NCBI GenBank assembly: GCA_020429915.1
Contig: JAGQKV010000016.1
Location: 69,137 to 133,136, forward strand
From: Candidatus Omnitrophota bacterium
GTDB taxonomy: Bacteria > Omnitrophota > Gorgyraeia > Zapsychrales > Zapsychraceae
Direction of reading: 5' to 3'
DNA: 64,000 nucleotides
Shown here: positions 2,724-47,649 of the stretch, in pieces
How positions within the stretch are numbered: position 1 is the first letter of the stretch
Layout: every line of letters begins with the position of its first letter
The notes under the pieces: model-generated
Database searches by the model: none
What the model saw: only the letters and a program-made list of their open reading frames with translations
What the model was told of the DNA's origin: nothing
Program-made: the position numbers and the translations under genes

Positions 2724-3206
2724 ATGGACCGTTCGATGAAACTGATCATCGTATTTCTCATCTTTCTGACTATCATATTTTTCCTTGTCCGTTACAAGCC
2801 GCGGGTGGTATTGCCGGTCACTGTGACCGTCAATGAGGTCCCGCGGGTCTTCGCTAAACTTAAGGCGAACGGAGCCGACGGGGCATTCGCCACGTTTGCC
2901 TTTTTGCCGGACAACGCGCAGGGCGGCGAAGACGCGGTCAATATCCAGTTTTCCGTTGAAAACGGCCGTATCGGTCTCGACTGGGTCCTGGAGGGGCCTA
3001 CCAATATCCGTGACCAAGAGAAGATTAACGTTTTTATGCGCGGTGAGGGGTTTATGCCGGAGCGCCGCGAGGTCAACGATGTGGCGTACTGGCGGGTGGA
3101 GAAAGGCGATCTGGCCGCGCTCTGTCAGAAGATCATCCGCGAAGTCTATCACAAACCGTCGGACATGCCGCTGGAATTTATTTATGAGGGGTTTCGCTGG
3201 CCTTAA
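2724..3206 (+). CDS. Hypothetical membrane-anchored protein (N-terminal TM helix)
   Basis: 160-aa ORF with a hydrophobic N-terminus (LIIVFLIFLTIIFFLV). No recognisable domain. Confidence 0.45.
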   Translation: MDRSMKLIIVFLIFLTIIFFLVRYKPRVVLPVTVTVNEVPRVFAKLKANGADGAFATFAFLPDNAQGGEDAVNIQFSVENGRIGLDWVLEGPTNIRDQEKINVFMRGEGFMPERREVNDVAYWRVEKGDLAALCQKIIREVYHKPSDMPLEFIYEGFRWP

Positions 3207-3224
3207 GAGCAGCGGATAGCGTTT

Positions 3225-3293
3225 AGCGGTTAGTGAATAGAAAGGTAATAGTGAGTAGGTAATATGGGTGGCAGATTAAAAGTAACTAACCGC
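3225..3293 (+). repeat. Divergent copy of the GTGA(A/T)AG / GGTAATA tandem short-repeat element, enclosed in a 10-bp inverted repeat (agcggttagt ... actaaccgct)
   Basis: It sits directly 3' of the upstream stop. Related arrays occur at 25236, 31987, 42726 and 22800. Confidence 0.4.
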
Positions 3294-3372
3294 TGTTGAC
3301 TAACCACAAGATGTCACATCATGAACACTCGCCGCTAGTCGCTTGAGCATGGGGTGAGAATACGCGAATACC

Positions 3373-21027: not shown

Positions 21028-21224
21028 AGCCGCCTTTTTCTTCCTTTCAAAGAGCCTTGACCACGCCTCACCGCACAGATTTATTTTCCGGCGAAGCAAA
21101 GAGCGGCTCCGGCGTTTTCAGCCGGGCGCGCCATTACGTAGTTTTACATATTGTTACGAATATCACCGGCTGATAAGATACTTTGATAAAGTAAGTGGAC
21201 CATCTTCACGGGGGGAATCGAATT

Positions 21225-22799: not shown

Positions 22800-22832
22800 A
22801 GTGGATACTGTTCGTATCCCGTATCACTTATC
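22800..22832 (-). repeat. Reverse-orientation copy of the GGGATAAGTGATACGGGATA octamer element, with an adjacent 6-bp palindrome (ggatac/gtatcc)
   Basis: The reverse complement of tatcccgtatcacttatcccg. Confidence 0.4.
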
Positions 22833-22847
22833 CCGAAACAGCACGTC

Positions 22848-23846: not shown

Positions 23847-25235
23847 ATGTCCAATAAAAGTGTATTGTTTGTATCGATATTCAGCATCTCGCTGGTGCTG
23901 GCCCTGATCGGTTTCACCGCGTGCCCTTCCCTTTACGGTCATCAGATTTTTCCTCAATACGGTCGCGGATCCTACGGCGACCACGGTTCCATATCCTTTT
24001 ATCATGAATTCGATCACCCGGTCGTTCTCACGGACCGGCCCAACCGCGTTGTGCTGCGCGTCGGGGCAAAAGCGCCCCTGGCCAGCGCAAGTTGGGAACG
24101 GCTGCCGTTAAACCTGGCGATCGTACTCGACCAGTCCGGCTCAATGCGCAGCCAGGACAAGATACAGAACGCCAAACGGGGGGCGATCGACATGATCCGC
24201 CAGCTTAATAAAGATGATGTCGTGTCCTTGATCGTTTTTTCCACTTCGGCAGAGATCATGATCCCGGCCCAGCATTTGACGGACAAGTCCAAATTCATCC
24301 GCGCCATCCGCAGTATTCGTGCCGACGGTTCCACGGCGTTGTATGACGGGCTGGAATGCGCCTTGCGGGAACTGAAGCGGCATGCGTCGTCCGGTTATCT
24401 CAACCGTATCGTGTTGTTGTCCGATGGGCTGGCGAACATCGGTCCGCAGGACAATAATGTCTTCCTCCGGTTGGGCAGCCGCAATATGGAAGAGGGAATC
24501 CATGTCTCGGCGATCGGCCTGGGGCTGGATTTTAATTCCGAGTTGCTGACCGGGTTGGCCGAGAACAGCGGGGGGAATTATTATTACGCCCGGCACGGCC
24601 ATCAATTGCCCGATATTTTCAACCGGGAGATCAACCGCAGCATAACGATACTGGCCCAGGATGTCCGCATTCGCGTCCATACCATCAACGGCAGCCGCAC
24701 CGGCGGGGTCATCGGGCCTGCCAATGTCGTGGACACCCAGACGGCGGAGACCTGGATCCCGTTTATGTATGCCGGCGACGACAAATACCGGCTCGTCGAG
24801 ATCGATCTGCCTGTACTCGACCGTGAAAAAGAGTTCACGGTCGCCCGGTTGGATATCCAGTATTACGATCCGTTTGCGGGACAGACCAAGTATGTGCACG
24901 AGTTGTTGTCCGTGGACGGCAGCAACGATGACCGCTTGGTCGAGCGGCAAACCAACAGGGACGTGATCAAGGACAGTTACCTCAGGCGGATGGCCGTGCA
25001 AAAGGAAGAAGCGGTCCGCTACGCCCGGTCCGGGGACTACCGGGGGGCCGCGCGCGTGATGATCAATACCAGTGTGGAGCTGCAGAACGCGGCCGATCAA
25101 TACAATGATCCGGAGCTGCGGCGGGCCTCGCAACAAAACCGCCGGAGTTACCGCCAGATCATGGATGAAGGCGAGGTCTCCCTGGAGCTGATGAATTCGG
25201 AGATCATGAATATTAATCAGGAGTTTTGGGGGTGA
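23847..25235 (+). CDS. von Willebrand factor A domain protein (YfbK-like: N-terminal TM, VWA with MIDAS, C-terminal helical domain)
   Basis: DQSGSM (DxSxS MIDAS), GSTALYDGL, VLLSDGLAN. Confidence 0.8.
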   Translation: MSNKSVLFVSIFSISLVLALIGFTACPSLYGHQIFPQYGRGSYGDHGSISFYHEFDHPVVLTDRPNRVVLRVGAKAPLASASWERLPLNLAIVLDQSGSMRSQDKIQNAKRGAIDMIRQLNKDDVVSLIVFSTSAEIMIPAQHLTDKSKFIRAIRSIRADGSTALYDGLECALRELKRHASSGYLNRIVLLSDGLANIGPQDNNVFLRLGSRNMEEGIHVSAIGLGLDFNSELLTGLAENSGGNYYYARHGHQLPDIFNREINRSITILAQDVRIRVHTINGSRTGGVIGPANVVDTQTAETWIPFMYAGDDKYRLVEIDLPVLDREKEFTVARLDIQYYDPFAGQTKYVHELLSVDGSNDDRLVERQTNRDVIKDSYLRRMAVQKEEAVRYARSGDYRGAARVMINTSVELQNAADQYNDPELRRASQQNRRSYRQIMDEGEVSLELMNSEIMNINQEFWG

Positions 25236-25272
25236 TACAGTGATGAGTGATGGGTGATGAGTGATGATGGTA
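25236..25272 (+). repeat. Tandem octamer array GTGATGAG TGATGGG TGATGAG TGATGATGG directly 3' of the vWA gene stop
   Basis: Read directly. A variant of the GTGATAAG family. Confidence 0.45.
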
Positions 25273-25601
25273 TTCGACGCGGCGGGATATTCGCCCAGCT
25301 GCCACAGCCCCTTGCTGACATCACTCAGCACGCACCACTCATTATTTTTCAGTTATCCCGAAGCACCCACCCCCGCCGGGATATCCCGGCCGGAGAGGCT
25401 CCGCTGGCGTTAACTCTCCGGTCGGTCCCCGGCGGCCCTTTAGTATTTGATATTACAGGAATACTATGATATCTTAAAAGTGTCCTGCGGGACGAACATT
25501 CCCCAATCCTACCGAATTTTACCCGACTTTAGTTGCAGCATTTTGTCCTTCCGGGCTGTTTTGTGTCCCGGAATTTATCGGTTTTAAAGGTGTAACCATC
25601 T

Positions 25602-28600
25602 ATGTCTATTAGGCTTACAAGAAAGAGTCCGACTGTCCGGCCGCTGGTCGCGATGCTGCTGATCGCCCTGCTCGGGGGGCTGATCACGCCGCCCGCCGTG
25701 CGGGCGGAGACGGTCCTCGACCTGCCCGAACCCGGCAGTCTGGTGACGCTCAGCGCGCCTTACGCGCCGGCACAACTGATGGGCATCAACGTCGACCCGC
25801 ATCGGCCGCTGGCCTTCGATTTCATCATTGATCAGGGCGACGACCGGCTGGAAGGGGACCATCTGCAGCAAGAAGGGGCGCGGCTGGTGAAGTACTTTTT
25901 GGCCTCACTGACCGTTCCGGAGGACGAGATGTGGGTCAATCTTTCTCCGTACGAGGAGAACCGCATTATTCCTGCGGATTTCGGCCGTACGCAAATGGGC
26001 CGCGATCTGCTCGCCCTGGACTACATGCTCAAGCAATTGTCCTCGACTCTGATGCATCCGGACGACCGTCTGGGCAGCGACTTCTGGCAGCGCGTCTACC
26101 AAAAGGCGCAGGAGCGTTTCGGCACCACCGACATCCCGGTCAATACCTTCAATAAAATCTGGATCGTTCCCGAACAGGCGACCGTTTACGAACATCCCGG
26201 CGGCGCGTTTATCGTGGACAGTCATCTGAAAGTCATGCTCGAAGAAGATTACCTGGCGTTGCAGGCCAATCAGGACAGCACCAAGCACGGCTTGGGGGAT
26301 ATGACCGTCGATAAAGTCGAGGTGATCAGCGGGGTTTCCGGGGAGATCGTGCGTTCGGTCCTGCTGCCGGAAATCGAACGGGAGGTCAACTCCGGCCGGA
26401 CCTTTGCCAAATTGCGGCAGATCTATCATGCCATGTTGCTGGCGTCCTGGTACAAGAAACGGTTGAAGGAGAGTTTTCTGGGTCAGATTTACGTCGACAA
26501 AAAACGCGTGGAAGGAATCGACATCCGTGACCGGGAAATCAACCACAAAATATACGAACAGTACGTCGCGTCTTTCAAGAAAGGCGTGTTCAACCTGATC
26601 AAAGAAGACACCGATCCGGAGACGCATGAGGTAATTCCGCGCAAGTATTTCTCCGGCGGGGTGGAACTCAACGGCGACCAGGCCACGCTGTCCGCCGTCG
26701 ACACGGCCGGTGACGCCGCGCTGCGCGAACACGTCCGGTCGGCGGCACGGCGCCTGCAGGCGGGACTGCGAATGACCGTCGGATTGAACGAAGCCGGTCC
26801 GCAACGCAGCGACCGCGCCATGCTCAGCCACGATCAGGCCGTGGTCGAGGGTGTCGCCCAACGGGTTGCCCGGGAAGAGACGGATGAATCTTCGGAGGCG
26901 TTCCGGCAGTGGTACGACGAAATCCTGGGGGCCTTTCGACTACGCTTCGGCATGATCAGCGGATATCTTGAGGGAGACGACGCGCACAGTCTGGAAGCCT
27001 ATCTGCAATTCAACCGTAACGATGTGATCAATTTATTCGATGCCCGCAATCTCCTCAAGAAAACGGACGACTCCGGACGGCCCACCCTGCTGGAGCTGGG
27101 GTCCGGCGACACCCGGGTGGCCTTGGCGATCGCGCAGCGCAATCCCGGCATGGACGTCATCGCCACCGACGTCTGGCAGACCGACCCCAAGGATTCCCTG
27201 CGCCAATATGTCGTCGATGCACGGGCCTTTGAAGACGGACTGCTCCCCGCCCAGACAACGCCATTGTCCAACCTCGCGGCGGTCCGCGCGCAGGCCGATC
27301 TTATCGGTCACCTGCCCGACGGATCGCTTGACTATATTCTCTTGGTGAACCCCTCCCGCGGGGCGATATACGATCTGGTGGTGATGGCCCGGGAATTCGG
27401 TTTGGCCGACAAACTGCGGCCCGGGGGTCAAATCATAATGAAGGCCACGAATGCCGTGGAACCGTTTTTCAATCTCATGAACGACAGTTTTCACTTTTTG
27501 GCCGTCGACGACTTTGAATTTCTCGGTGTGGATTTGCATGCCGAGTCCGCGTGGCAGGAAGATTTCCTGAAAGGCAACGTCTACGTTGGTTCCCGGCTGG
27601 AAGATATGCTCGGTGAGTTGTATCAACTGGATGTCCCGCGACAAAAGATCGGCGATAATGCCGTTCTGGCGATGGTGGCGGATATGGCCACACGTTACCA
27701 CATGGAGTCCAACATGGTGGAAAGCATTATCGCCAATAATCTGGACGTCGATATATTTGTCGGCGGTCTCATTACGGAAATTAAACGCCGGAATCCCGCC
27801 AGCGAGATGACACCGGAGGCTATGCAAAAATATCTGCGTCGACGCGGTTATCTGATCGCGGGTATTCTCGACCAGCAGGTGGTGTCCGAAGCGTTTAACA
27901 TGATCGAGGAGCCGGTCAATCCCGAGGATGATCCATGGGTGTATGCCATCGATGGGGATGCCTATCAGACGATTTTGCGGGGGGCGCTCAATACCGGAAG
28001 CATGGCCCGTCAGCTGGCGCGGATGCGCGGCGTGGCGCGAAAGCTTTGGGACCTGCGCACGGGTGTCGGTATGTACATGAAGTCCGCCGGACCTCACACG
28101 CGGAAGTATCTTGATGAAATGAACGCTGCCGACCGCCAACGGGTGGCGGAAATTCAGCAGATCTATGGCGTCTCTGAAAGCGTGGCCGTGGCCCGTCTGC
28201 TGAATCAGAAGGATGTCGACGAACGGCAGCGGGTAGCGATACGCTCGATGGAACACACGGCAAGCGCCGCGGTGGATCCGTTCGGAAAACTGTCCGTCCT
28301 GGCGACCTGGTTTGCCACGGCAGCCATGGTCGGCGATTTCGACACGACGGTTCGTGCGGAATTTCAGGGGCTTCACCGGGACCTGCAACAGCTGAACCTC
28401 GCGCTGCGGGCCTTTGCCTCGCAGGATCCCATGCAGCCCGATTTCCGTTACACCCGGATTTATGATTTCGAGGCGCGCTGGCAAAGTCTGGAGCGGACCA
28501 TTCGTGATTATATGGGGCTCATTCGGGAAGTGGCCCAACGTCCGACGACCCAATTGGAAGACAGTGAGCACATGGTGGACAGGATGAGCGAGCTCATCGA

Positions 28601-30974
28601 AGGGATCGGCAACGATTTCGCATCGCAAATGGCCTTCGCTCTGGGGGACGTCGAATATAATCGCCAACGGACCGACATTGCCGACACCGTCCGGGCCGTG
28701 GTCCGGCGTTTGTCCGAAGACCGGGGCTTCCGGGACAATTATGTCAGGATCGATGTGACACCCGCTGCGGAAGGGATGACCGTTAATGTCAATCCCGGCT
28801 GGCTGTCGCTGATTGTCAGCAATTTCGTCAACAATGCCCACGATGAGATTTACAAGCAAGTCGTTACCGGCGACCGTACCGATTTCGCGGACGGCGACAT
28901 CCGCATCACCCTGGATTATCTTCCCCGGACTGGTAGAGCGATATTGCGTGTGCACGACAAGGCGCGCGGTATCGATCCTGAGTCGCCGATACTCGAGAAG
29001 AAGTTCGGCCGGCCGAAGATCTACCGGCTGGGCGGTACGATCGGCAAATCTGCGGCGACCGGCAGCGGCACCGGTGTGGGCTTGGCTGAGGTGTATCACA
29101 TCGCCCGGATGATGGATTGGGAGCTGGCGCTGAATCCGCAAAAGAAATTCAACGGCGGTGATGCCATGGGAGCGGAATTTACGGTGACCATACCGGATGT
29201 GACGGCCAAGTCCGATAACGCGGTCTTGACCAATGTCCGGACCGTGGCCCGTCAATTTGAAATGGACGAAGGGGTGGTCCAAGGGATTATGGCTTCCAAT
29301 ATCCCTGTCGACAGACTGGTCCGCGAGTTGCTCAAGACAATTCGGCGGCGTAATGCCCTGACGCAACTTGATGAGCCGGCGATTCTCCGTCAATTAACGG
29401 AGAAGGGATTGGTCCGGGACGATCTACTGTCCAAAGATTTTCTCAATGGGAATTTGGTGCTGACCGAACCGGATGTGGTCGAGGGCCTTGAGGCCGACCG
29501 GTATGCCGTCTCCGATGCCGAATTGGATGACATCGTCACGGATACGCTGACCATGGAATCATTCGCGATGCAGGTCATCCGGATGCGGGCCGTGGCGCAG
29601 GACAAGGACCGGGTCGCTTCCATAACGGAAACGGACCTCGCGGACATCGGCGCACACCTGGAGGAATATTTATCTCAACTGAACGCACAGGAACGCGGGC
29701 AGGTCGACTTCCTCACCAATGACGAGGGCCTGAGCCGTACCGAGGCGGTGGCCTGGGTGTTGGGCGAGAAGATGATCGAAGAGCGCCGGCGGGTGGCGGT
29801 GCAGTCTATGCATCATAGTGCCAGCGCGGCGGTGGACCCGTTTGAAAAGCTTGGTTCGCTCGGCGGCCTGTTCGGTTTGGCGGCGACTCTGAGCGATTAC
29901 GGAGAAGCGGATAAGGAACGTTTCCGGGCCATGAGCAATACCATCGATCAATTCAAGGCGCGGTTGGGGGCCTTTGCCCGCGATGCCTCCGAACCGCAGT
30001 TTAATTATCAGCGCATCTATGCCCTGGAAAGCATCTGGCGCAAATTGCTGGGACCCTTAAGCGAATTCGTCGGACTATTCCGCGGACAAGCGGCACGGTT
30101 TGACACCGACAGTGTGACCAATAAGTTTATCGCCGATCAGACGGTGAGTTTGATTCAAGGGATCAACGCTGACTTGCAGGGGCAGATCGCCTTCGCCCAA
30201 GGCAATCTCACCTTCAACCGGGACCGGATCAATTTGGCCGCGACGATCAAATCCGCCGCGGAGGAGCTATCCCTTAAACGCGGTTATCCGAAGGACCTCA
30301 TTTCTATCGAAATATCCTCTGATGCGCAGACAGCGGAATTGGATATCAATCCCGTTTGGGTTTCTTTGATCGTTACCAATTTGATCAAGAATGCCTATGA
30401 CGAATTGAGCAAACAGGTGGCAACGGGGACCCGAGCCGGTCTTCGTTCCGGAGAAATCCGGGTGTCATTAAATTACTTTGAACGCGCCAATCAATTGGAG
30501 CTGGCCGTCCATGATGCCGCCGGCGGGATCGCCGCGGACTCTCCGCTGTTGGCGCAGCGACTCGGGCGGGAGCGTATCTTTGAGCTGGGCCAGACAGCCG
30601 GTAAGGAGCGCGGTACGGGTGTCGGGCTGGCCGAGGTCTACCATATTTCCCGGCTGATGAGATGGCCGCTGGAACTGACTCCCCGGGCCGTCATGCCCAA
30701 TTCCGACGCCTTCGGCGCGCGCTTCGTTTTGACCATTCCCTATAAACCGGGGGAGGCCGACAGCGCCGTCCTGGCCGACCGGCAAGACGAGGTCGGGGGG
30801 ATCGACATGAACCCGGCGCTGGCCGATATCCGTTTCACCGCGGCGGACGGTGCCGCGCCGGCGTCCCTTGTCCGGCTGCCGCCGGCGCTCGACATCGAGG
30901 TGGAGGGATTTGTGCCGGTGATCCTCAACGCGGTCCCCATCCGCAACATCCCCCTGCTGCTGGGTCTGGATTAG
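25602..30974 (+). CDS. Giant (1790-aa) multidomain protein: signal/TM anchor, ~450-aa unknown region, Rossmann class-I-MTase-like domain, then an internally duplicated ~520-aa module ending in a degenerate histidine-kinase-type GHKL ATPase (N, G1, G2 boxes)
   Basis: LLELGSGDTRVALAIA..DVIATDV and YILLVNPS (MTase-like). Two GHKL copies: IVSNFVNNAHDE..HDKARGID..GTGVGLAEVYHI and IVTNLIKNAYDE..HDAAGGIA..GTGVGLAEVYHI. Confidence 0.8.
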   Translation: MSIRLTRKSPTVRPLVAMLLIALLGGLITPPAVRAETVLDLPEPGSLVTLSAPYAPAQLMGINVDPHRPLAFDFIIDQGDDRLEGDHLQQEGARLVKYFLASLTVPEDEMWVNLSPYEENRIIPADFGRTQMGRDLLALDYMLKQLSSTLMHPDDRLGSDFWQRVYQKAQERFGTTDIPVNTFNKIWIVPEQATVYEHPGGAFIVDSHLKVMLEEDYLALQANQDSTKHGLGDMTVDKVEVISGVSGEIVRSVLLPEIEREVNSGRTFAKLRQIYHAMLLASWYKKRLKESFLGQIYVDKKRVEGIDIRDREINHKIYEQYVASFKKGVFNLIKEDTDPETHEVIPRKYFSGGVELNGDQATLSAVDTAGDAALREHVRSAARRLQAGLRMTVGLNEAGPQRSDRAMLSHDQAVVEGVAQRVAREETDESSEAFRQWYDEILGAFRLRFGMISGYLEGDDAHSLEAYLQFNRNDVINLFDARNLLKKTDDSGRPTLLELGSGDTRVALAIAQRNPGMDVIATDVWQTDPKDSLRQYVVDARAFEDGLLPAQTTPLSNLAAVRAQADLIGHLPDGSLDYILLVNPSRGAIYDLVVMAREFGLADKLRPGGQIIMKATNAVEPFFNLMNDSFHFLAVDDFEFLGVDLHAESAWQEDFLKGNVYVGSRLEDMLGELYQLDVPRQKIGDNAVLAMVADMATRYHMESNMVESIIANNLDVDIFVGGLITEIKRRNPASEMTPEAMQKYLRRRGYLIAGILDQQVVSEAFNMIEEPVNPEDDPWVYAIDGDAYQTILRGALNTGSMARQLARMRGVARKLWDLRTGVGMYMKSAGPHTRKYLDEMNAADRQRVAEIQQIYGVSESVAVARLLNQKDVDERQRVAIRSMEHTASAAVDPFGKLSVLATWFATAAMVGDFDTTVRAEFQGLHRDLQQLNLALRAFASQDPMQPDFRYTRIYDFEARWQSLERTIRDYMGLIREVAQRPTTQLEDSEHMVDRMSELIEGIGNDFASQMAFALGDVEYNRQRTDIADTVRAVVRRLSEDRGFRDNYVRIDVTPAAEGMTVNVNPGWLSLIVSNFVNNAHDEIYKQVVTGDRTDFADGDIRITLDYLPRTGRAILRVHDKARGIDPESPILEKKFGRPKIYRLGGTIGKSAATGSGTGVGLAEVYHIARMMDWELALNPQKKFNGGDAMGAEFTVTIPDVTAKSDNAVLTNVRTVARQFEMDEGVVQGIMASNIPVDRLVRELLKTIRRRNALTQLDEPAILRQLTEKGLVRDDLLSKDFLNGNLVLTEPDVVEGLEADRYAVSDAELDDIVTDTLTMESFAMQVIRMRAVAQDKDRVASITETDLADIGAHLEEYLSQLNAQERGQVDFLTNDEGLSRTEAVAWVLGEKMIEERRRVAVQSMHHSASAAVDPFEKLGSLGGLFGLAATLSDYGEADKERFRAMSNTIDQFKARLGAFARDASEPQFNYQRIYALESIWRKLLGPLSEFVGLFRGQAARFDTDSVTNKFIADQTVSLIQGINADLQGQIAFAQGNLTFNRDRINLAATIKSAAEELSLKRGYPKDLISIEISSDAQTAELDINPVWVSLIVTNLIKNAYDELSKQVATGTRAGLRSGEIRVSLNYFERANQLELAVHDAAGGIAADSPLLAQRLGRERIFELGQTAGKERGTGVGLAEVYHISRLMRWPLELTPRAVMPNSDAFGARFVLTIPYKPGEADSAVLADRQDEVGGIDMNPALADIRFTAADGAAPASLVRLPPALDIEVEGFVPVILNAVPIRNIPLLLGLD
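27690..30800 (+). repeat. Intragenic tandem duplication (2 x ~1555 nt) inside the giant ORF
   Basis: Paired segments: SIIANNLDVD../GIMASNIPVD.., RVAIRSMEHTASAAVDPFGKL/RVAVQSMHHSASAAVDPFEKL, and the two GHKL domains. The constant offset between paired segments is 1553-1560 nt. Confidence 0.7.
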
Positions 30975-31098: not shown

Positions 31099-31986
31099 AT
31101 GACCAAGAAGACCTCATCGAAGAAGAAACCGGCCAAGAAGAAAAAATCCACCGTCAAGAAAGCCGCACGTCACGGTGTCGGTAAACAATCGGCGCGCCCT
31201 GCCCCCAAGCCCAAGCTGGGCAAGAAATATTACGAAGATGAACTGGAACGCTTGCAGGCCGAACTGGTAAAACTTCAGGAATGGATCAGGGACCGGGGGC
31301 TGCGGGTAATTGTTGTGTTTGAAGGGCGGGACGCCGCCGGCAAGGGCGGGGTGATTAAACGCATTCAGGAACGGACCAATCCGCGCGTGGTGCGCGTGGC
31401 CGCCCTGGGCACTCCCACCGAAAAAGAAAAGACGCAATGGTATTTTCAACGCTACGTGGAGCATCTGCCGGCCGGCGGGGAAATGGTCCTGTTCGACCGC
31501 AGCTGGTACAATCGCGCCGGGGTGGAGCGCGTGATGGGGTTTTGCACGGAGGAACAATATTGGGAGTTCCTGCGGTCCTGTCCCGAGTTTGAGGGGATGC
31601 TGCAGCGCGCCGGGATCATCCTGATCAAGTATTGGTTTTCCGTCAGCGACGAGGTGCAGGAGAAACGGTTTCAGGAGCGCATGACCGATCCGCGCAAATA
31701 CTGGAAGCTGAGCCCCATGGATCTGAAGTCGCGCGAGAAATGGTTCGAATACTCCAAAGCCAAGGACGTGATGTTCCAGTACACCGATACCAAGGATTCC
31801 CCGTGGTACGTGGTCAATGCCGACGACAAGCGCCGGGCGCGGCTGAATTGCATTACGCATCTGTTGTCGATGATCGAATATGAGGACCTCTCGCCGAAAC
31901 CGCGCAAACTGCCGCCGCGGCCGAAGAAATCCAAGTACGTCCGTCCGCCGCTGCATGAGCAGAATTTTATTGCGGAGGTGTATTGA
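31099..31986 (+). CDS. ppk2: Polyphosphate kinase 2 (PPK2) with a ~40-aa lysine-rich N-terminal tail
   Basis: FEGRDAAGKGG (Walker A), WYFQRY, FDRSWYNRAGVERV. The N-terminus is MTKKTSSKKKPAKKKKSTVKKAARHG. Confidence 0.85.
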   Translation: MTKKTSSKKKPAKKKKSTVKKAARHGVGKQSARPAPKPKLGKKYYEDELERLQAELVKLQEWIRDRGLRVIVVFEGRDAAGKGGVIKRIQERTNPRVVRVAALGTPTEKEKTQWYFQRYVEHLPAGGEMVLFDRSWYNRAGVERVMGFCTEEQYWEFLRSCPEFEGMLQRAGIILIKYWFSVSDEVQEKRFQERMTDPRKYWKLSPMDLKSREKWFEYSKAKDVMFQYTDTKDSPWYVVNADDKRRARLNCITHLLSMIEYEDLSPKPRKLPPRPKKSKYVRPPLHEQNFIAEVY

Positions 31987-32024
31987 TCAGTGGTAAGGGA
32001 TAAGTGATAGGGGATAAGAGATCG
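31987..32024 (+). repeat. Tandem octamer array TCAGTGGTAAGGGATAAGTGATAGGGGATAAGAGATCG directly 3' of the ppk2 stop
   Basis: Read directly. It shares the GATAAGAGAT(C/T) end with the 42726 copy. Confidence 0.45.
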
Positions 32025-32055
32025 ACCCGTTGGGTCCGGTCTCAAGGAGGGAACG

Positions 32056-32520
32056 GTGATTAACATTCGAAAGATTTTGACGCCGATCGATATCGATCCG
32101 GATCCGAAAAACGAGTTACATATCGATATGCCCAATGTGGCGGCGCTGAAATACGGCTGTGAGTTTGCCGGTCGTTTCGGGGCGGAGCTGCATATCCTCC
32201 ACGTTGTCGAGGACATCACCGAGCTGGAAGATTGCACGCATGAAGCCGAGCGCGAGGAGGCAGGGGTCCTGCACAAGCTGAAAATCGTACCGCCCGCCGG
32301 CGGGGGCAAGGTGGTCCGGGCAATCCGCAAAGGTCGGCCGTTTGTCGAGATCATTGCCTACGCGCGCGAGCAGGCCGTCGATCTGATCATTATGGGGACC
32401 CACGGCCGGACGTCCCTGCCGCATTTACTGATCGGCAGCGAAACTGAAAATACCGTCCGCAAGGCCCCGTGCCCGGTGCTGGTTGTCCGCCATCCCGAGC
32501 ATGAATTCGTGTTGCCGTGA
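32056..32520 (+). CDS. Universal stress protein (UspA family)
   Basis: LHILHVVED, IIMGTHGRTSLPHLLIGSETENTVRKAPCPVLVV. GTG start after the RBS aaggaggg. Confidence 0.8.
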   Translation: MINIRKILTPIDIDPDPKNELHIDMPNVAALKYGCEFAGRFGAELHILHVVEDITELEDCTHEAEREEAGVLHKLKIVPPAGGGKVVRAIRKGRPFVEIIAYAREQAVDLIIMGTHGRTSLPHLLIGSETENTVRKAPCPVLVVRHPEHEFVLP

Positions 32521-34470: not shown

Positions 34471-34671
34471 ATGCCCCAAGGAACAGTAAAATGGTTCAGC
34501 GACCAAAAGGGATACGGATTCATCTCATATGAAGGCGGCGATGACGTTTTCGTTCATCACTCCGCTATTCAAATGGACGGATTCAAGACCCTTTCTGAAG
34601 GTCAAGCGGTCGAATTCGAGATCGAAGAAGGCCCGAAAGGCGCTCAAGCCGCCAACGTGACCGTCAGCTAA
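34471..34671 (+). CDS. cspA: Cold-shock protein (CspA family)
   Basis: [30 protein letters not shown] (RNP1/RNP2 motifs). 66 aa. Confidence 0.9.
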
Positions 34672-42431: not shown

Positions 42432-42725
42432 ATGAAACGGCAATTGACACCGATCATCATGACAGCCGTGATCGCGGCTACGGTTTCAGGTAATCCCGTC
42501 GCGGCAGACGTTAAGGAAAAATCCAGGAAGACCGAACTGGTCACCTACGCGACCGGCCCGGCGGGGGAGGCCGATCCCGGCCGGCTGGGTGTTCGGGAGG
42601 TGGAGGTGGTCCGGCCGGACAGCGACGGATGGGCCGCGCTCAAGACCGGAGGGCGTTTCGTATTCGATGTGCTCACCCTGCCGGTGGAAATCGTTCGGGT
42701 CCTGTGGGAGTCGGCCACGGAATAG
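42432..42725 (+). CDS. Small secreted hypothetical protein
   Basis: Signal peptide. 97 aa. Confidence 0.35.
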   Translation: MKRQLTPIIMTAVIAATVSGNPVAADVKEKSRKTELVTYATGPAGEADPGRLGVREVEVVRPDSDGWAALKTGGRFVFDVLTLPVEIVRVLWESATE

Positions 42726-42764
42726 ATAAGTGATAAGGGATAGGTGATAAGTGATAAGAGATTT
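42726..42764 (+). repeat. Tandem octamer array ATAAGTGATAAGGGATAGGTGATAAGTGATAAGAGATTTG (GTGATAAG/GGGATAAG family)
   Basis: Read directly. It lies between a stop codon and the next gene's signal-peptide ATG. Confidence 0.5.
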
Positions 42765-42777
42765 GAACATATATCGG

Positions 42778-43353
42778 ATGTTGATCACGGTGTGCGGGCC
42801 GGGTCTGGTGCTTACCGGTGTTTTGTTCACGGCTCCCCGGGCCGGGGCATTGACGACGATGGATTTGATGAGCTGGCAGTACCCGACGGATCAGGAATTA
42901 ACGGGTCTGGCGGTGGAGCACGGTTTAATCAAGCCGGATCTGCGCGATCGCTACAAGGCGAATGATACGGCTACCAACTGGAAGTTGTGGATTATCCGTT
43001 CACGGGAGGAAAAACGGCTGCTGATCAAACAGATGAAGGATGTCTTTGCCGAAGCCGACAATGCCGTTATCCTGAAGCCGGACGAACACTATGTGGACGA
43101 AATCAATATCCGGATTCAGAATATCCTCAAAGAGGGGAATATCGACTATTTCAACAAGGTGACCGTCCCGACGCTGTTCAAGAGTCTGGCGATCATTGAA
43201 GGCGACTATAACGACGGCCGTACCCAGCCGTTGCAGCTGATCCGCAATTGGTTCGGTGAAACCGGTGTCGAACAGATGAAGGAGCGTTTTCCGGAACGCT
43301 ATGAACAGTTGAAACAGCAGGAACTGGACGCGGCTTTGCAACCCCGACCGTAA
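42778..43353 (+). CDS. Hypothetical secreted protein
   Basis: Signal peptide MLITVCGPGLVLTGVLFTAPRAGA. The track ORF began at a GTG inside the repeat. Confidence 0.45.
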   Translation: MLITVCGPGLVLTGVLFTAPRAGALTTMDLMSWQYPTDQELTGLAVEHGLIKPDLRDRYKANDTATNWKLWIIRSREEKRLLIKQMKDVFAEADNAVILKPDEHYVDEINIRIQNILKEGNIDYFNKVTVPTLFKSLAIIEGDYNDGRTQPLQLIRNWFGETGVEQMKERFPERYEQLKQQELDAALQPRP

Positions 43354-45365: not shown

Positions 45366-45650
45366 GATTAACTCCTTGGGCTAGAGATATTAGGGGGTTG
45401 TGTTCCCTATTATAAATCCGGGACGTCCGTTGTGCAAATGGGGAAAATGCGCAAATCCTCTTAAACTGTTGAAGATAAGCGCCTTATCAGGGATCACTTG
45501 AAGAAAATGGAATTTGCCGCTACAATAGAGCTCTGCCTTTTTGACATCGTCAAAACTTCGCCCGCGAAACGGCAGGGGCCTGACCCTGCCAGTACCAAAC
45601 GATAACAACAGCCAATACCCAGGGATGATATCCCAAAAGGACTGGTATAT

Positions 45651-47649
45651 GCCGACCAAGACAGCCAAGAAAACTTCCCGCCGCAAGTCCGCGACCGTCG
45701 CGGTGTTGCAGCGTGTTGTCATAGAAGATGTTAAGCCCCAGATCGACGGCGGGGCCTTTCCCGTCAAACGTGTGCCCGGAGAATATGTCACCGTCACCGC
45801 CACGGTCTATGCGGACGCCCATGACGACGTTGAGGCGGTATTGCTCGTCCGCCGCCGGAGCGAAACTCAGTGGCGCGAGATTCCGATGCGCAGGGGGATC
45901 AATGACCTGTGGACCGCCGATTTTCTTATCGAGCACCAGGAAGACTATGTATACACGGTGGCGGGCTGGATTGACGAGTTCTCCACCTGGCGCCGCAAAC
46001 TGGTCAAGCTGTGGGAGGCCGGCCAGGATGTGCGGCTGGAGATGAAGGTCGCCGCCCAACTGCTCGACACGGCGGCCGTCAACGTCAACGGTTCGCTGCA
46101 GGATGGACGCTGGCTCAAGAAATGGGCTCGGGATTTTACCCGGGAGGGGGACGTGTTCGCCAGTGCGTACATCGGGATGAGCCGGCCGCTCTTTGATCTG
46201 ATGAAGCGTTTCGGCGAGCGCAAGTCTTACCGCCGCTTCACGCATGAATTGACCGTGCGCGTCGACCGGCAGCGTGCGCTGTACAGCACCTGGTATGAAC
46301 TCTTTCCGCGTTCCTGGAGCCTCACACAGGGACAACACGGTACGTTCAAGGATTGTGAGCGGCTGCTGCCGGAACTCGCGCGAATGGGATTCGATGTGCT
46401 TTACTTTCCGCCGATTCATCCGATCGGTTCCACGCACCGCAAGGGCGGCAACAACAGCCTGACCGCCGGAGTAACGGACCCGGGCAGCCCGTGGGCGGTC
46501 GGCAACACCGACGGCGGCCACAAGGCGATCCACGCGCAATTGGGTACGCTCAAGGACTTCAAGAATCTTATGGCGGCGGCTGCCAAGCACGGCATCGAGA
46601 TAGCCCTCGACATCGCTTTTCAGTGCTCGCCGGACCACCCGTACGTGAAGCAACATCCGCAGTGGTTCAAATGGCGCCCGGACAAGACCATCCAGTACGC
46701 CGAGAATCCGCCGAAGAAGTATGAAGACATCTATCCGATCAACTTTGACAGTGATGATTATCAAAATCTGAAAGAAGAACTGAAGGACGTCTTTGTCTAC
46801 TGGCTTAAGCAGGGGATCCGTATCTTTCGCGTCGACAATCCGCACACCAAACCGTTCCCGTTTTGGGACGAGGTGATCGGCGCGGTCCGGGAAGATTTCC
46901 CCGACGTGATCTTCCTCGCCGAGGCCTTTACCCGGCCGCACGTGATGCAACGGCTGGCCAAAGGCGGCTTCCATCAGTCTTACACGTACTTTACATGGCG
47001 CAATTCCCGGCATGAGTTTCGCGAATACATGCATGAACTCACGCGTACCGAAATGCGGGAATATTTCCGTCCCAATTTCTGGCCCAACACCCCCGACATC
47101 CTGCCGCCGCACCTGCAACACGGCGGACGTCCGGCGTTCATGCAGCGGTTGGTGCTGGCCGCGACGTTGTCCTCGAACTACGGGATCTACGGGCCGGCGT
47201 TTGAACTTTGCCTGTGGGAACCTTTCCCCGGGAAGGAAGAATACGTTCATTCCGAAAAGTACGAACTGAAAGATTGGGATTGGGACGCGCCCTGGAATCT
47301 TAAGGATTTTATCACCCGCATCAACCGGATTCGCCGCGACAACCCGGCTCTGCAGACGACCTGGAACTACGGGCCGTGCGAATCCAGCAATGAGAACCTG
47401 TATTGTTATCACAAGGCCACCGCCGACCGCGGCAACATCCTCTTGATCGTGGTCAACATGGACCCGTATCAAACTCACAGCGGGCAGGTGTGCGTGCCGG
47501 TGGAGGAGTTGGGGATCGGATGGAACCGGCATTACCGTGTTCACGATCTGATCAGTAATGACCGGTACACCTGGTACCGCGACTGGAATTACGTCGAGCT
47601 GGACCCGTTCCGTTGTCCGGCGCATATATTTAAAATCACCTGGGATTGA
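45651..47649 (+). CDS. glgE: Alpha-1,4-glucan:maltose-1-phosphate maltosyltransferase
   Basis: GH13_3 motifs DIYPINFDS and IFRVDNPHTKPFPFW. 666 aa. Confidence 0.85.

Follow-up and report, generated by a model that had tools for sequence, protein, structure and literature searches.

Stop-codon-anchored heptanucleotide repeat arrays in an Omnitrophota genome fragment and in other bacterial phyla

The 64,000-nt stretch analyzed here (contig JAGQKV010000016.1 of a Candidatus Omnitrophota bacterium, hereafter the window) carries, at the stop codons of several of its genes, short runs of about five imperfect 7-nt repeats with the consensus GAT-N-N-G-N. Three of these arrays (A1, A2 and A3) follow, respectively, a gene encoding a 97-aa protein, the gene of a polyphosphate kinase 2 (PPK2) and the gene of a VWA-domain protein, and a shorter array (A4) is oriented in the opposite direction (Table 1). 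The PPK2 and UbiB proteins encoded in the window are 98% identical to proteins named Candidatus Omnitrophica at NCBI, and the contig is also present in public metagenome assemblies.

Tandem Repeats Finder recovered the three longer arrays with a period of 7, at 42725-42762 (5.4 copies), 31984-32022 (5.6 copies) and 25239-25267 (4.1 copies), and when lags 4 to 12 were compared, lag 7 was the sole tandem period in excess in the window. The unit is thus a heptamer and not an octamer, as proposed in the initial annotation of the sequence. Searching the window for three consecutive GATRRGN units with at most two mismatches yielded 11 matches against 0.13 expected, all of them confined to A1, A2 and A3 on the plus strand and to positions 22813-22832 on the minus strand. 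Together with the stop codons contained in the first units, this confirms that the repeat family is real and strongly biased to the site just 3' of stop codons. Runs of two units, on the other hand, are not in excess in this small sample (13 matches, 11 of them inside the arrays, versus 3.6 expected). A1 and A2 share the ending GATAAGAGAT, as had been noticed for the repeats at 42726-42764 and 31987-32024, and the reverse-orientation copy noted at 22800-22832 corresponds to A4.

Stop codons were placed with the help of gene calls made independently on public contigs. The first unit of A1 holds the stop codon TAG of the 97-aa gene (42723-42725), the first G of the array being the last base of this codon, and the first units of A2 and A3 overlap the TGA stops of the PPK2 gene (31984-31986) and of the VWA gene (25233-25235). 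In relatives lacking the arrays, PPK2 (...EVY*) and the VWA protein (...EFWG*) end at the same codon as in the window, indicating that the arrays begin at the native stops and that the genes have not been truncated by them. All three arrays are co-oriented with the upstream gene, which makes a role in the 3' untranslated region (3' UTR) or between cistrons reasonable. A4 shows the opposite arrangement, the 5' end of its purine-rich strand lying 13-15 nt from the start codon (22848) of a plus-strand PNPOx gene and the array 145 nt from the stop codon of a cytochrome gene. The arrays A1 to A4 therefore all have their 5' end 0-50 nt from an open reading frame (ORF), at its stop if co-oriented with it and at its start if opposed.

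Table 1. Repeat arrays, pairing elements and adjacent genes of the window
Feature	Position	Strand	Sequence or remarks
Array A1	42725-42762	+	GATAAGT GATAAGG GATAGGT GATAAGT GATAAGA GAT
Array A2	31985-32022	+	GATCAGT GGTAAGG GATAAGT GATAGGG GATAAGA GAT
Array A3	25234-25269	+	GATACAGT GATGAGT GATGGGT GATGAGT GATGATG
Array A4 (short)	22812-22834	-	GG GATAAGT GATACGG GATACGA (read on the minus strand)
Pyrimidine-rich 3' arm complementary to A3	25319-25345	+	CATCACT CAGCACG CACCACT CATTAT
A2 hairpin	32018-32043	+	last unit GAGAUC with downstream GGUCUC
A4 hairpin	22803-22819	both (predicted)	6-bp palindrome GGATAC TGTTC GTATCC
Divergent second heptamer run	3211-3270	+	TAGCGGA TAGCGTT TAGCGGT TAGTGAA, then GGTAATA GTGAGTA GGTAATA
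97-aa gene upstream of A1	42432-42725	+	no domain match
200-aa gene downstream of A1	42751-43353	+	called start GTG 42751 inside the array; alternative ATG 42778
PPK2 gene upstream of A2	31099-31986	+	
Universal stress protein (Usp) gene downstream of A2	32056-32520	+	own AAGGAGG ribosome-binding site
VWA-domain gene upstream of A3	23847-25235	+	

A further heptamer run, cited at 3225-3270, had been taken for a divergent copy of the family inside a 10-bp inverted repeat. The inverted repeat exists (3225-3234 with 3285-3294), but the run itself is made of TAGCGGT-like units (3211-3240) followed by GGTAATA/GTGAGTA units and is of a different, weaker type. It begins 5 nt past the stop of the ORF 2724-3206, an uncertain prediction without a supporting domain match. 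Isolated GATAAG strings reported at 21160-21190 and 45470-45495 reduce to single hexamers (at 21172 and 45474/45483) and were rejected as family members, GATAAG occurring outside the arrays at chance frequency (22 occurrences versus 19.2 +/- 4.4 expected). A reversed string at 25335-25350 is likewise no isolated copy, yet it is relevant as a part of the arm complementary to A3. Dispersal in the manner of a miniature inverted-repeat transposable element, or of any miniature proliferating repeat as suggested initially, was also discarded, since A1 and A2 have no common flanking sequence and share nothing beyond the array itself. The same holds for a phage origin: no megablast match was obtained in a phage collection, and the neighboring genes are ordinary chromosomal genes.

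Conservation within the unit is uneven. In a profile of 38 units from the window and its relatives, which is indicative only since the register was set by eye and orthologous arrays are not independent, the information content amounts to 1.5-1.7 bits at each of G1, A2, T3 and G6 and to about 0.5 bits at each of positions 4, 5 and 7, so that the conserved core reads G-N-G-A-T plus two variable bases. The heptads are contiguous, and GTGAT occurs three times in A1, once in A2 and three times in A3. HutP-type sites, which consist of NAG repeated with 4-nt spacers, do not fit this profile: conservation is limited to the G at position 6, an A being found at position 5 in 24 of the 38 units, and relatives have CTG, ATG or ACG instead. 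Folding into G-quadruplexes could be ruled out on motif content, as tracts of at least two G number two in A1 and one in A3, and tracts of at least three G number one in A1, two in A2 and one in A3, the four G-tracts of a quadruplex not being reached.

The possibility had also been raised that the arrays act as GGA-rich 3' UTR sponges titrating proteins of the CsrA/RsmA type. One or two GGGAU motifs are present in each of A1, A2 and A4, as such sponges would have. However, GGA arises solely where the variable seventh base is G, it is absent from A3 and from the orthologous array of the relative L248, the arrays are predicted to be unstructured or to lie in stems and not in hairpin loops, and no CsrA gene was found among the small ORFs scanned, which cover only part of the 64-kb window. 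This role is considered most improbable, close to negligible.

Further distinctive features of the arrays are the presence of stop codons in all three frames and an almost complete lack of C, which is entirely absent from A1. Each unit contains TGA, TAA or TAG, and all three forward frames are in consequence closed within 21 nt. Arrays of this composition represent an annotation hazard, since they can give rise to false start codons and false antisense ORFs. Their reverse complement is open in all three frames, resulting in long spurious antisense ORFs across them (e.g. ...SLITYHLSLITYLF...), such as those at 42486-42830 (-) and 31671-32354 (-).

The closure of all frames also invites an explanation at the level of translation, according to which the arrays would be intercistronic elements, that is, unstructured C-free spacers with Shine-Dalgarno-like GGUGAU/AAGGG stretches, holding the ribosome for re-initiation at the next gene. 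An idea of this type has been proposed for the TAACTGA repeats of other bacteria (PMC4679880). Predicted pairing to a generic 16S rRNA 3' tail, assumed and not that of this genome, amounts to -11.2 kcal/mol for A1, -8.5 for A2 and -9.8 for A3, as compared with -12.3 for the ribosome-binding site of the Usp gene and -11.2 for the first percentile of the window. In L122, a 98% relative, the array reaches from the PPK2 stop directly to the ATG of an extra LysM gene, and the called start of the 200-aa gene behind A1 is a GTG inside the array, the spacer between the 97-aa gene and this gene measuring 25-52 nt. The end of an array thus lies close to a start codon, in place of a ribosome-binding site, in L122 and possibly in A1 (GTG 42751), but not in A2 or A3: the gene next to A3 is 330 nt away, and behind A2 there is a strong ribosome-binding site independent of the array. 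Besides the assumed 16S tail on which the pairing figures rest, the occurrence elsewhere of family arrays with stop-free GATGGGG-type units, or with AGAT/CGAT cores lacking an anti-Shine-Dalgarno match, speaks against this explanation, which appears highly unlikely.

Pairing with downstream sequence is most evident at A3. The array and its pyrimidine-rich partner arm form the only inverted doublet in the window, and the arm is directly followed by TTTTT (25345-25349). The predicted fold of both arms has a free energy of -58.7 kcal/mol (z = -5.0), a stability reached by none of 200 shuffled sequences, and together with the U-run it looks like an intrinsic (Rho-independent) terminator. A simple terminator scan missed it because the loop and stem limits of the scan were too short. 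Features of an intrinsic terminator were found at A3 only, A1 and A2 lacking them. A promoter-like site is located downstream of the A3 arm (25447-25475). It falls within a promoter-like or leader block, TATTTGATATT ... TGATATCTTAAAA ... CATTCCCCAATCCT (window 25444-25520), upstream of a giant HATPase_c gene; this block has counterparts in L248 (~1740-1820) and L251 (~2290-2370) and is conserved at only 58% protein identity.

At A2, the predicted hairpin formed by the last unit lies 12 nt upstream of the GTG (32056) at which the Usp gene starts and abuts the Shine-Dalgarno motif of this gene (-15.7 kcal/mol, z = -0.9, not significant alone). The last unit is a different one in the 94% relative L124, for which an equivalent hairpin is nevertheless predicted (AUGGGAU with GUCCCAU). 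In the A4 hairpin, the last array unit pairs with an inverted copy next to it. Counts of G:U versus A:C mismatches in hairpin arms (90 versus 74) were tried as a guide to the transcribed strand and proved uninformative, because both strands of a hairpin made of an array and an inverted array read the purine arm first. No known RNA families or tRNAs were found in the window.

The arrays persist at the same intergenic sites in relatives, with changes in unit number and sequence, close relatives differing by whole 7-nt units as well as by point substitutions. At the PPK2 stop, L122 has 4.5 units (TAG TGAGTG ACAAGTG ATACGGG ATAAGTG AT), and L124 has seven as against five in the window, due to a 14-nt (two-unit) indel at the stop-codon end. 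The orthologue of A1 in the 98% relative L252 retains five units, with mutations in the edge units only. At greater distance, L248 (58% identity of the VWA protein) has five GTGATGR units beginning 4 nt past the VWA stop, another 58% relative has mere remnants of an array at this stop, and L247, a 78% relative with altered gene order, has no array there. Gene content also shifts at or near array junctions among close relatives (L122 5874-6665, L124 6322-7545 and L247 1131-1558). The LysM gene of L122 is placed between the PPK2 array and the Usp gene, L124 has an added Na+/H+ exchanger, and L247 is devoid of the 1790-aa HATPase_c gene and, along with it, of A3.

Part of this behavior would be expected of neutral, functionless microsatellites, generated by slippage and surviving only where they disrupt nothing. 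The bases just past a stop codon would be the least constrained, the other end of the spacer being occupied by promoters and ribosome-binding sites. In support of this, substitutions between A2 and its L124 counterpart (~26% in the alignment) are similar in rate to those of the neighboring non-coding DNA, the difference between the two involves whole units, arrays have been lost or have decayed in L247, L251 and L125, and none occurs within 21.7 kb of L254 (57% identity of the UbiB protein). What a neutral origin leaves unexplained is the occurrence of one unit family at four loci in 64 kb, the lack of short two-unit runs and the uneven conservation of positions within the unit, to which the orientation and partner asymmetries described below must be added. 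As a full account it is doubtful, although it retains a real minority chance.

In order to place the arrays in a wider context, 185,579 species genomes were scanned with four perfect units, resulting in at least 120 loci where about one would be expected by chance (own estimate). Among the matches listed, to which all the following counts refer, are Planctomycetota, Acidobacteriota (especially Pyrinomonadaceae), Gemmatimonadota, cyanobacteria, Bacteroidota, Chloroflexota, Nitrospirota, Proteobacteria and others. With genes called crudely, the longest ORF being taken first, 80 of 102 arrays were found in intergenic regions, 22 in antisense ORFs and none in sense-strand genes, the latter by construction, because the units stop all frames. 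An inverted partner array within 160 nt was found downstream in 31 of the 102 arrays and upstream in none. Full partners are lacking in 66 arrays; of these, 17 have a complement of their last 8 nt located 3-60 nt downstream and none has one upstream, as compared with 1.7 for a shuffled probe. About half of the arrays elsewhere are then followed by a full or partial inverted copy, and never preceded by one.

The orientation of the arrays follows the upstream gene. In 48 solo intergenic arrays the 5' neighbor is co-oriented in 37 and opposed in 11 (p = 2e-4), and it lies closer than the 3' neighbor, with median gaps of 13.5 and 82.5 nt, respectively, and a smaller 5' gap in 34 cases versus 13 (p = 0.003). 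The strand carrying the array has a positive local GC skew at 38 loci and a negative one at 43, indicating that orientation is not tied to replication; replication-strand polarity was therefore ruled out as its cause. Neither the orientation bias (37 versus 11) nor the strictly downstream position of the partners (31 to 0 and 17 to 0) is accounted for by neutral slippage.

In Acidobacteriota, in-phase runs have a sharp mode at four units (32 runs; those of two, three and five units number 10, 9 and 2, respectively). Contigs of Pyrinomonadaceae and other Acidobacteriota (L018, L020, L025, L084, L091, L092, L093, L099 and L112) contain hairpin elements built from the heptads and resembling REPIN doublets, with the layout 4 x GAT[A/G]AGT, aaaag, loop, cttttc, 4 x T[T/C]ATCAC. 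Several of them occur per 4-8 kb, again with a sharp mode of exactly four units per arm, and the choice between A and G varies between copies and between the two arms. REP and REPIN elements of Proteobacteria consist of individually palindromic REPs with a GTAG signature, mobilized by RAYT transposases. The window arrays resemble them in their length of ~35 nt, in being present in many copies after stops or between cistrons, in occurring both as singlets and as inverted hairpin doublets, and in a putative action on mRNA 3' ends, but neither individual palindromy nor the GTAG signature nor a RAYT transposase is seen for them. No Y1 transposase was detected among the scanned ORFs, which cover only part of the window.

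The ending GATAAGAGAT was tried as a family-specific 3' end and rejected. A metagenome scan with it gave mostly plain (GATAAGA)n microsatellites, and relatives of the window do not keep the ending, so that it is not a hallmark of the family. An AT-rich element in which conserved flanks (…ccaataggatatgagccagagataagaagataagga / agccaaacaaggacaaacaaagataaaatgaaatgaagtcagattcatgttgttgacctt) surround a (GATAAGA)n core is dispersed over the metagenome Ga0307516 (contigs L127, L128, L129, L131, L139, L152 and some 20 more) and is probably eukaryotic or organellar.

The Omnitrophota arrays are members of an already described and widespread kind of heptamer repeat, the unit family and the host phylum being new. 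The term uncharacterized, used in the initial annotation, does not apply to the kind, although it does to its function, none being assigned in the literature found on heptamer repeats. Arrays by ORF ends, some overlapping the stop codon and differing in length and sequence among relatives, have been reported both for Xanthomonas and Nostoc (PMC4692102) and for Beggiatoaceae (PMC4679880). The GGGNATC / GGGGA(C/T)T heptamers of Xanthomonas and Nostoc (Rehm et al. 2015) are closer to the 5' neighboring ORF whatever the orientation of that ORF, prefer four units, and are flanked by the same genes in both of two species compared, although their length and sequence vary extensively (PMC4692102). They share with the window arrays the heptamer unit, one G-rich strand, an intergenic location, inverted pairs able to form stem-loops, a position upstream of ORFs solely on the non-coding strand (as in A4), a small and peaked unit number (4, as compared with ~5 in the window) and the retention of a variable array between the same pair of genes in relatives (PMC4692102). 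The arrays of the window differ from them in their unit, which is rich in stop codons and provides no four G-tracts, and in their host. Stop-codon anchoring of the Xanthomonas and Nostoc type thus holds across many phyla for an unrelated unit unable to form G-quadruplexes.

The TAACTGA direct repeats of marine Beggiatoaceae, cyanobacteria and Bacteroidetes (MacGregor 2015) are likewise rich in stop codons and are located just before start codons, where they fill short spacers in which canonical ribosome-binding sites are often missing; S1, Csp and CsrA have been proposed as their readers (PMC4679880). As in the window, these repeats have two stop codons per heptamer, 2-6 copies per set and one dominant heptamer per lineage (PMC4679880). 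Unlike them, the window arrays have the unit GATRRGN and are anchored to the upstream stop codon and not to the downstream start. In most prokaryotic genomes heptamers are the commonest long simple repeat, for which polymerase slippage has been proposed (Mrazek et al. 2007, as reported in PMC4679880 and also cited in PMC4692102), and with the Omnitrophota arrays this kind gains a phylum and a unit family. In common with such repeats and with cyanobacterial STRR sequences, the window arrays consist of head-to-tail 7-nt copies beyond chance, mostly intergenic, of strain-variable length and differing between relatives by whole units, features for which slippage is the proposed generator. STRR sequences are said to go back to Mazel et al. 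in 1990. Compared with a freely slipping microsatellite, the arrays are short, degenerate, unevenly conserved by position and strictly next to a stop codon. Effects of other heptamer arrays on expression have been described in a Nostoc preprint, without a mechanism.

A different reading of the heptads is suggested by Omega, the ribbon-helix-helix protein of plasmid pSM19035, which binds heptads of the sequence 5'-WATCACW-3' in contiguous rows of 7-10, at least four contiguous heptads being needed for full function (PMC9499535). The arrays could accordingly be binding sites of an oligomeric protein contacting one heptad per subunit, either on DNA, as Omega does, or on RNA, in the case of a ring-shaped or cold-shock-type protein. 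Like the Omega operators and parS sites, they are made of 7-bp heptads that follow each other without gaps and in which variable bases flank an ATCAC/GTGAT core, and AGTGATA units match the Omega heptad exactly (WATCACW being the reverse complement of WGTGATW; PMC9499535). The conserved G-N-G-A-T core with two variable bases, the ~5 units of the window arrays and the acidobacterial mode of four are consistent with such sites, a cold-shock-domain protein is encoded at 34471-34671, and lineage-specific dominant heptamers (PMC4679880) are what a lineage-specific reader predicts. However, Omega belongs to a Firmicutes plasmid system and its heptads overlap promoters and work in either orientation (PMC9499535), whereas the arrays lie at stop codons and are oriented with the upstream gene. 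Moreover, no ribbon-helix-helix domain was found among the ORFs scanned, which represent part of the window, and many units have GGGAT or AGAT cores. Operator sites would also not be expected to spread so widely over phyla or to take the form of pure microsatellites. The likeness to Omega, drawn from general background and a single paper, is a lead and not a test, and an oligomeric reader of this type is judged quite unlikely.

The explanation favored here, to which about even chances are given, is that the arrays are lineage-specific heptanucleotide tandem repeats which belong to the transcribed 3' tail of the upstream gene, are maintained by slippage and often serve as the purine-rich 5' arm of a post-stop hairpin. 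Slipped-strand mispairing would create and resize the arrays in the unconstrained DNA just past the stop codon, where gain or loss of units at the 5' end leaves the protein unchanged, since the units begin with TGA or TAG. Arrays would then persist as the 5' arm of a post-stop hairpin, or as raw material for one, and such a hairpin could terminate transcription or protect the mRNA 3' end in the manner of REP elements. A3 with its partner arm and U-run would be a complete example, A2 and A4 would pair through their last unit only, and A1 may represent an orphan arm filling the spacer before the next gene. The link of orientation to the upstream gene, the absence of a link to GC skew and the strictly downstream partners point to a role, or at least a filter, at the transcript level, and favor an explanation of this type over the G-quadruplex idea.

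Several observations weigh against this explanation. Taken whole, A1 and A2 have no significant predicted structure (z = +0.9 and -0.3), and neither of the short hairpins, at A2 and at A4, reaches significance by itself. An A3-type hairpin is not conserved in L248, where the strong predicted hairpin uses sequence downstream of the array and not the array itself, suggesting that array retention is not explained by pairing alone. As to the survey of other phyla, an array closes every forward frame under crude ORF calls, and some of the cases with a stop inside the array may be false. Finally, the uneven conservation within the unit, the lack of an excess of two-unit runs in the window and the acidobacterial mode at four fit a sequence-reading factor or a fixed-size module better than free slippage.

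Such a factor would be general if the stop-anchored (G-N-G-A-T-N-N) x ~4-5 arrays constituted a cross-phylum cis-element read heptad by heptad by an oligomeric factor, a proposal regarded as rather unlikely. On DNA the reader may be a protein of the ribbon-helix-helix-like type and on RNA a ring-shaped or cold-shock-type protein, the 16S rRNA 3' tail being a further candidate. If true, the reader would set the fate of the ribosome or of the transcript at the gene end, and its footprints would be seen in the rule of orientation, in the 31-to-0 asymmetry of the partners, in the peak of the unit number and in the uneven conservation of positions.

Two other features of the window were recorded. 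A perfect palindrome, GATAAGCGCCTTATC, at 45474-45488, some 55 nt upstream of a gene for a GlgE-like maltosyltransferase (45541-47649), has no relation to the arrays and is a possible binding site of a transcription factor. Also, the plus strand contains two very large ORFs, at 25602-30974 (1790 aa, with a HATPase_c domain) and at 58038-63740 (1900 aa).

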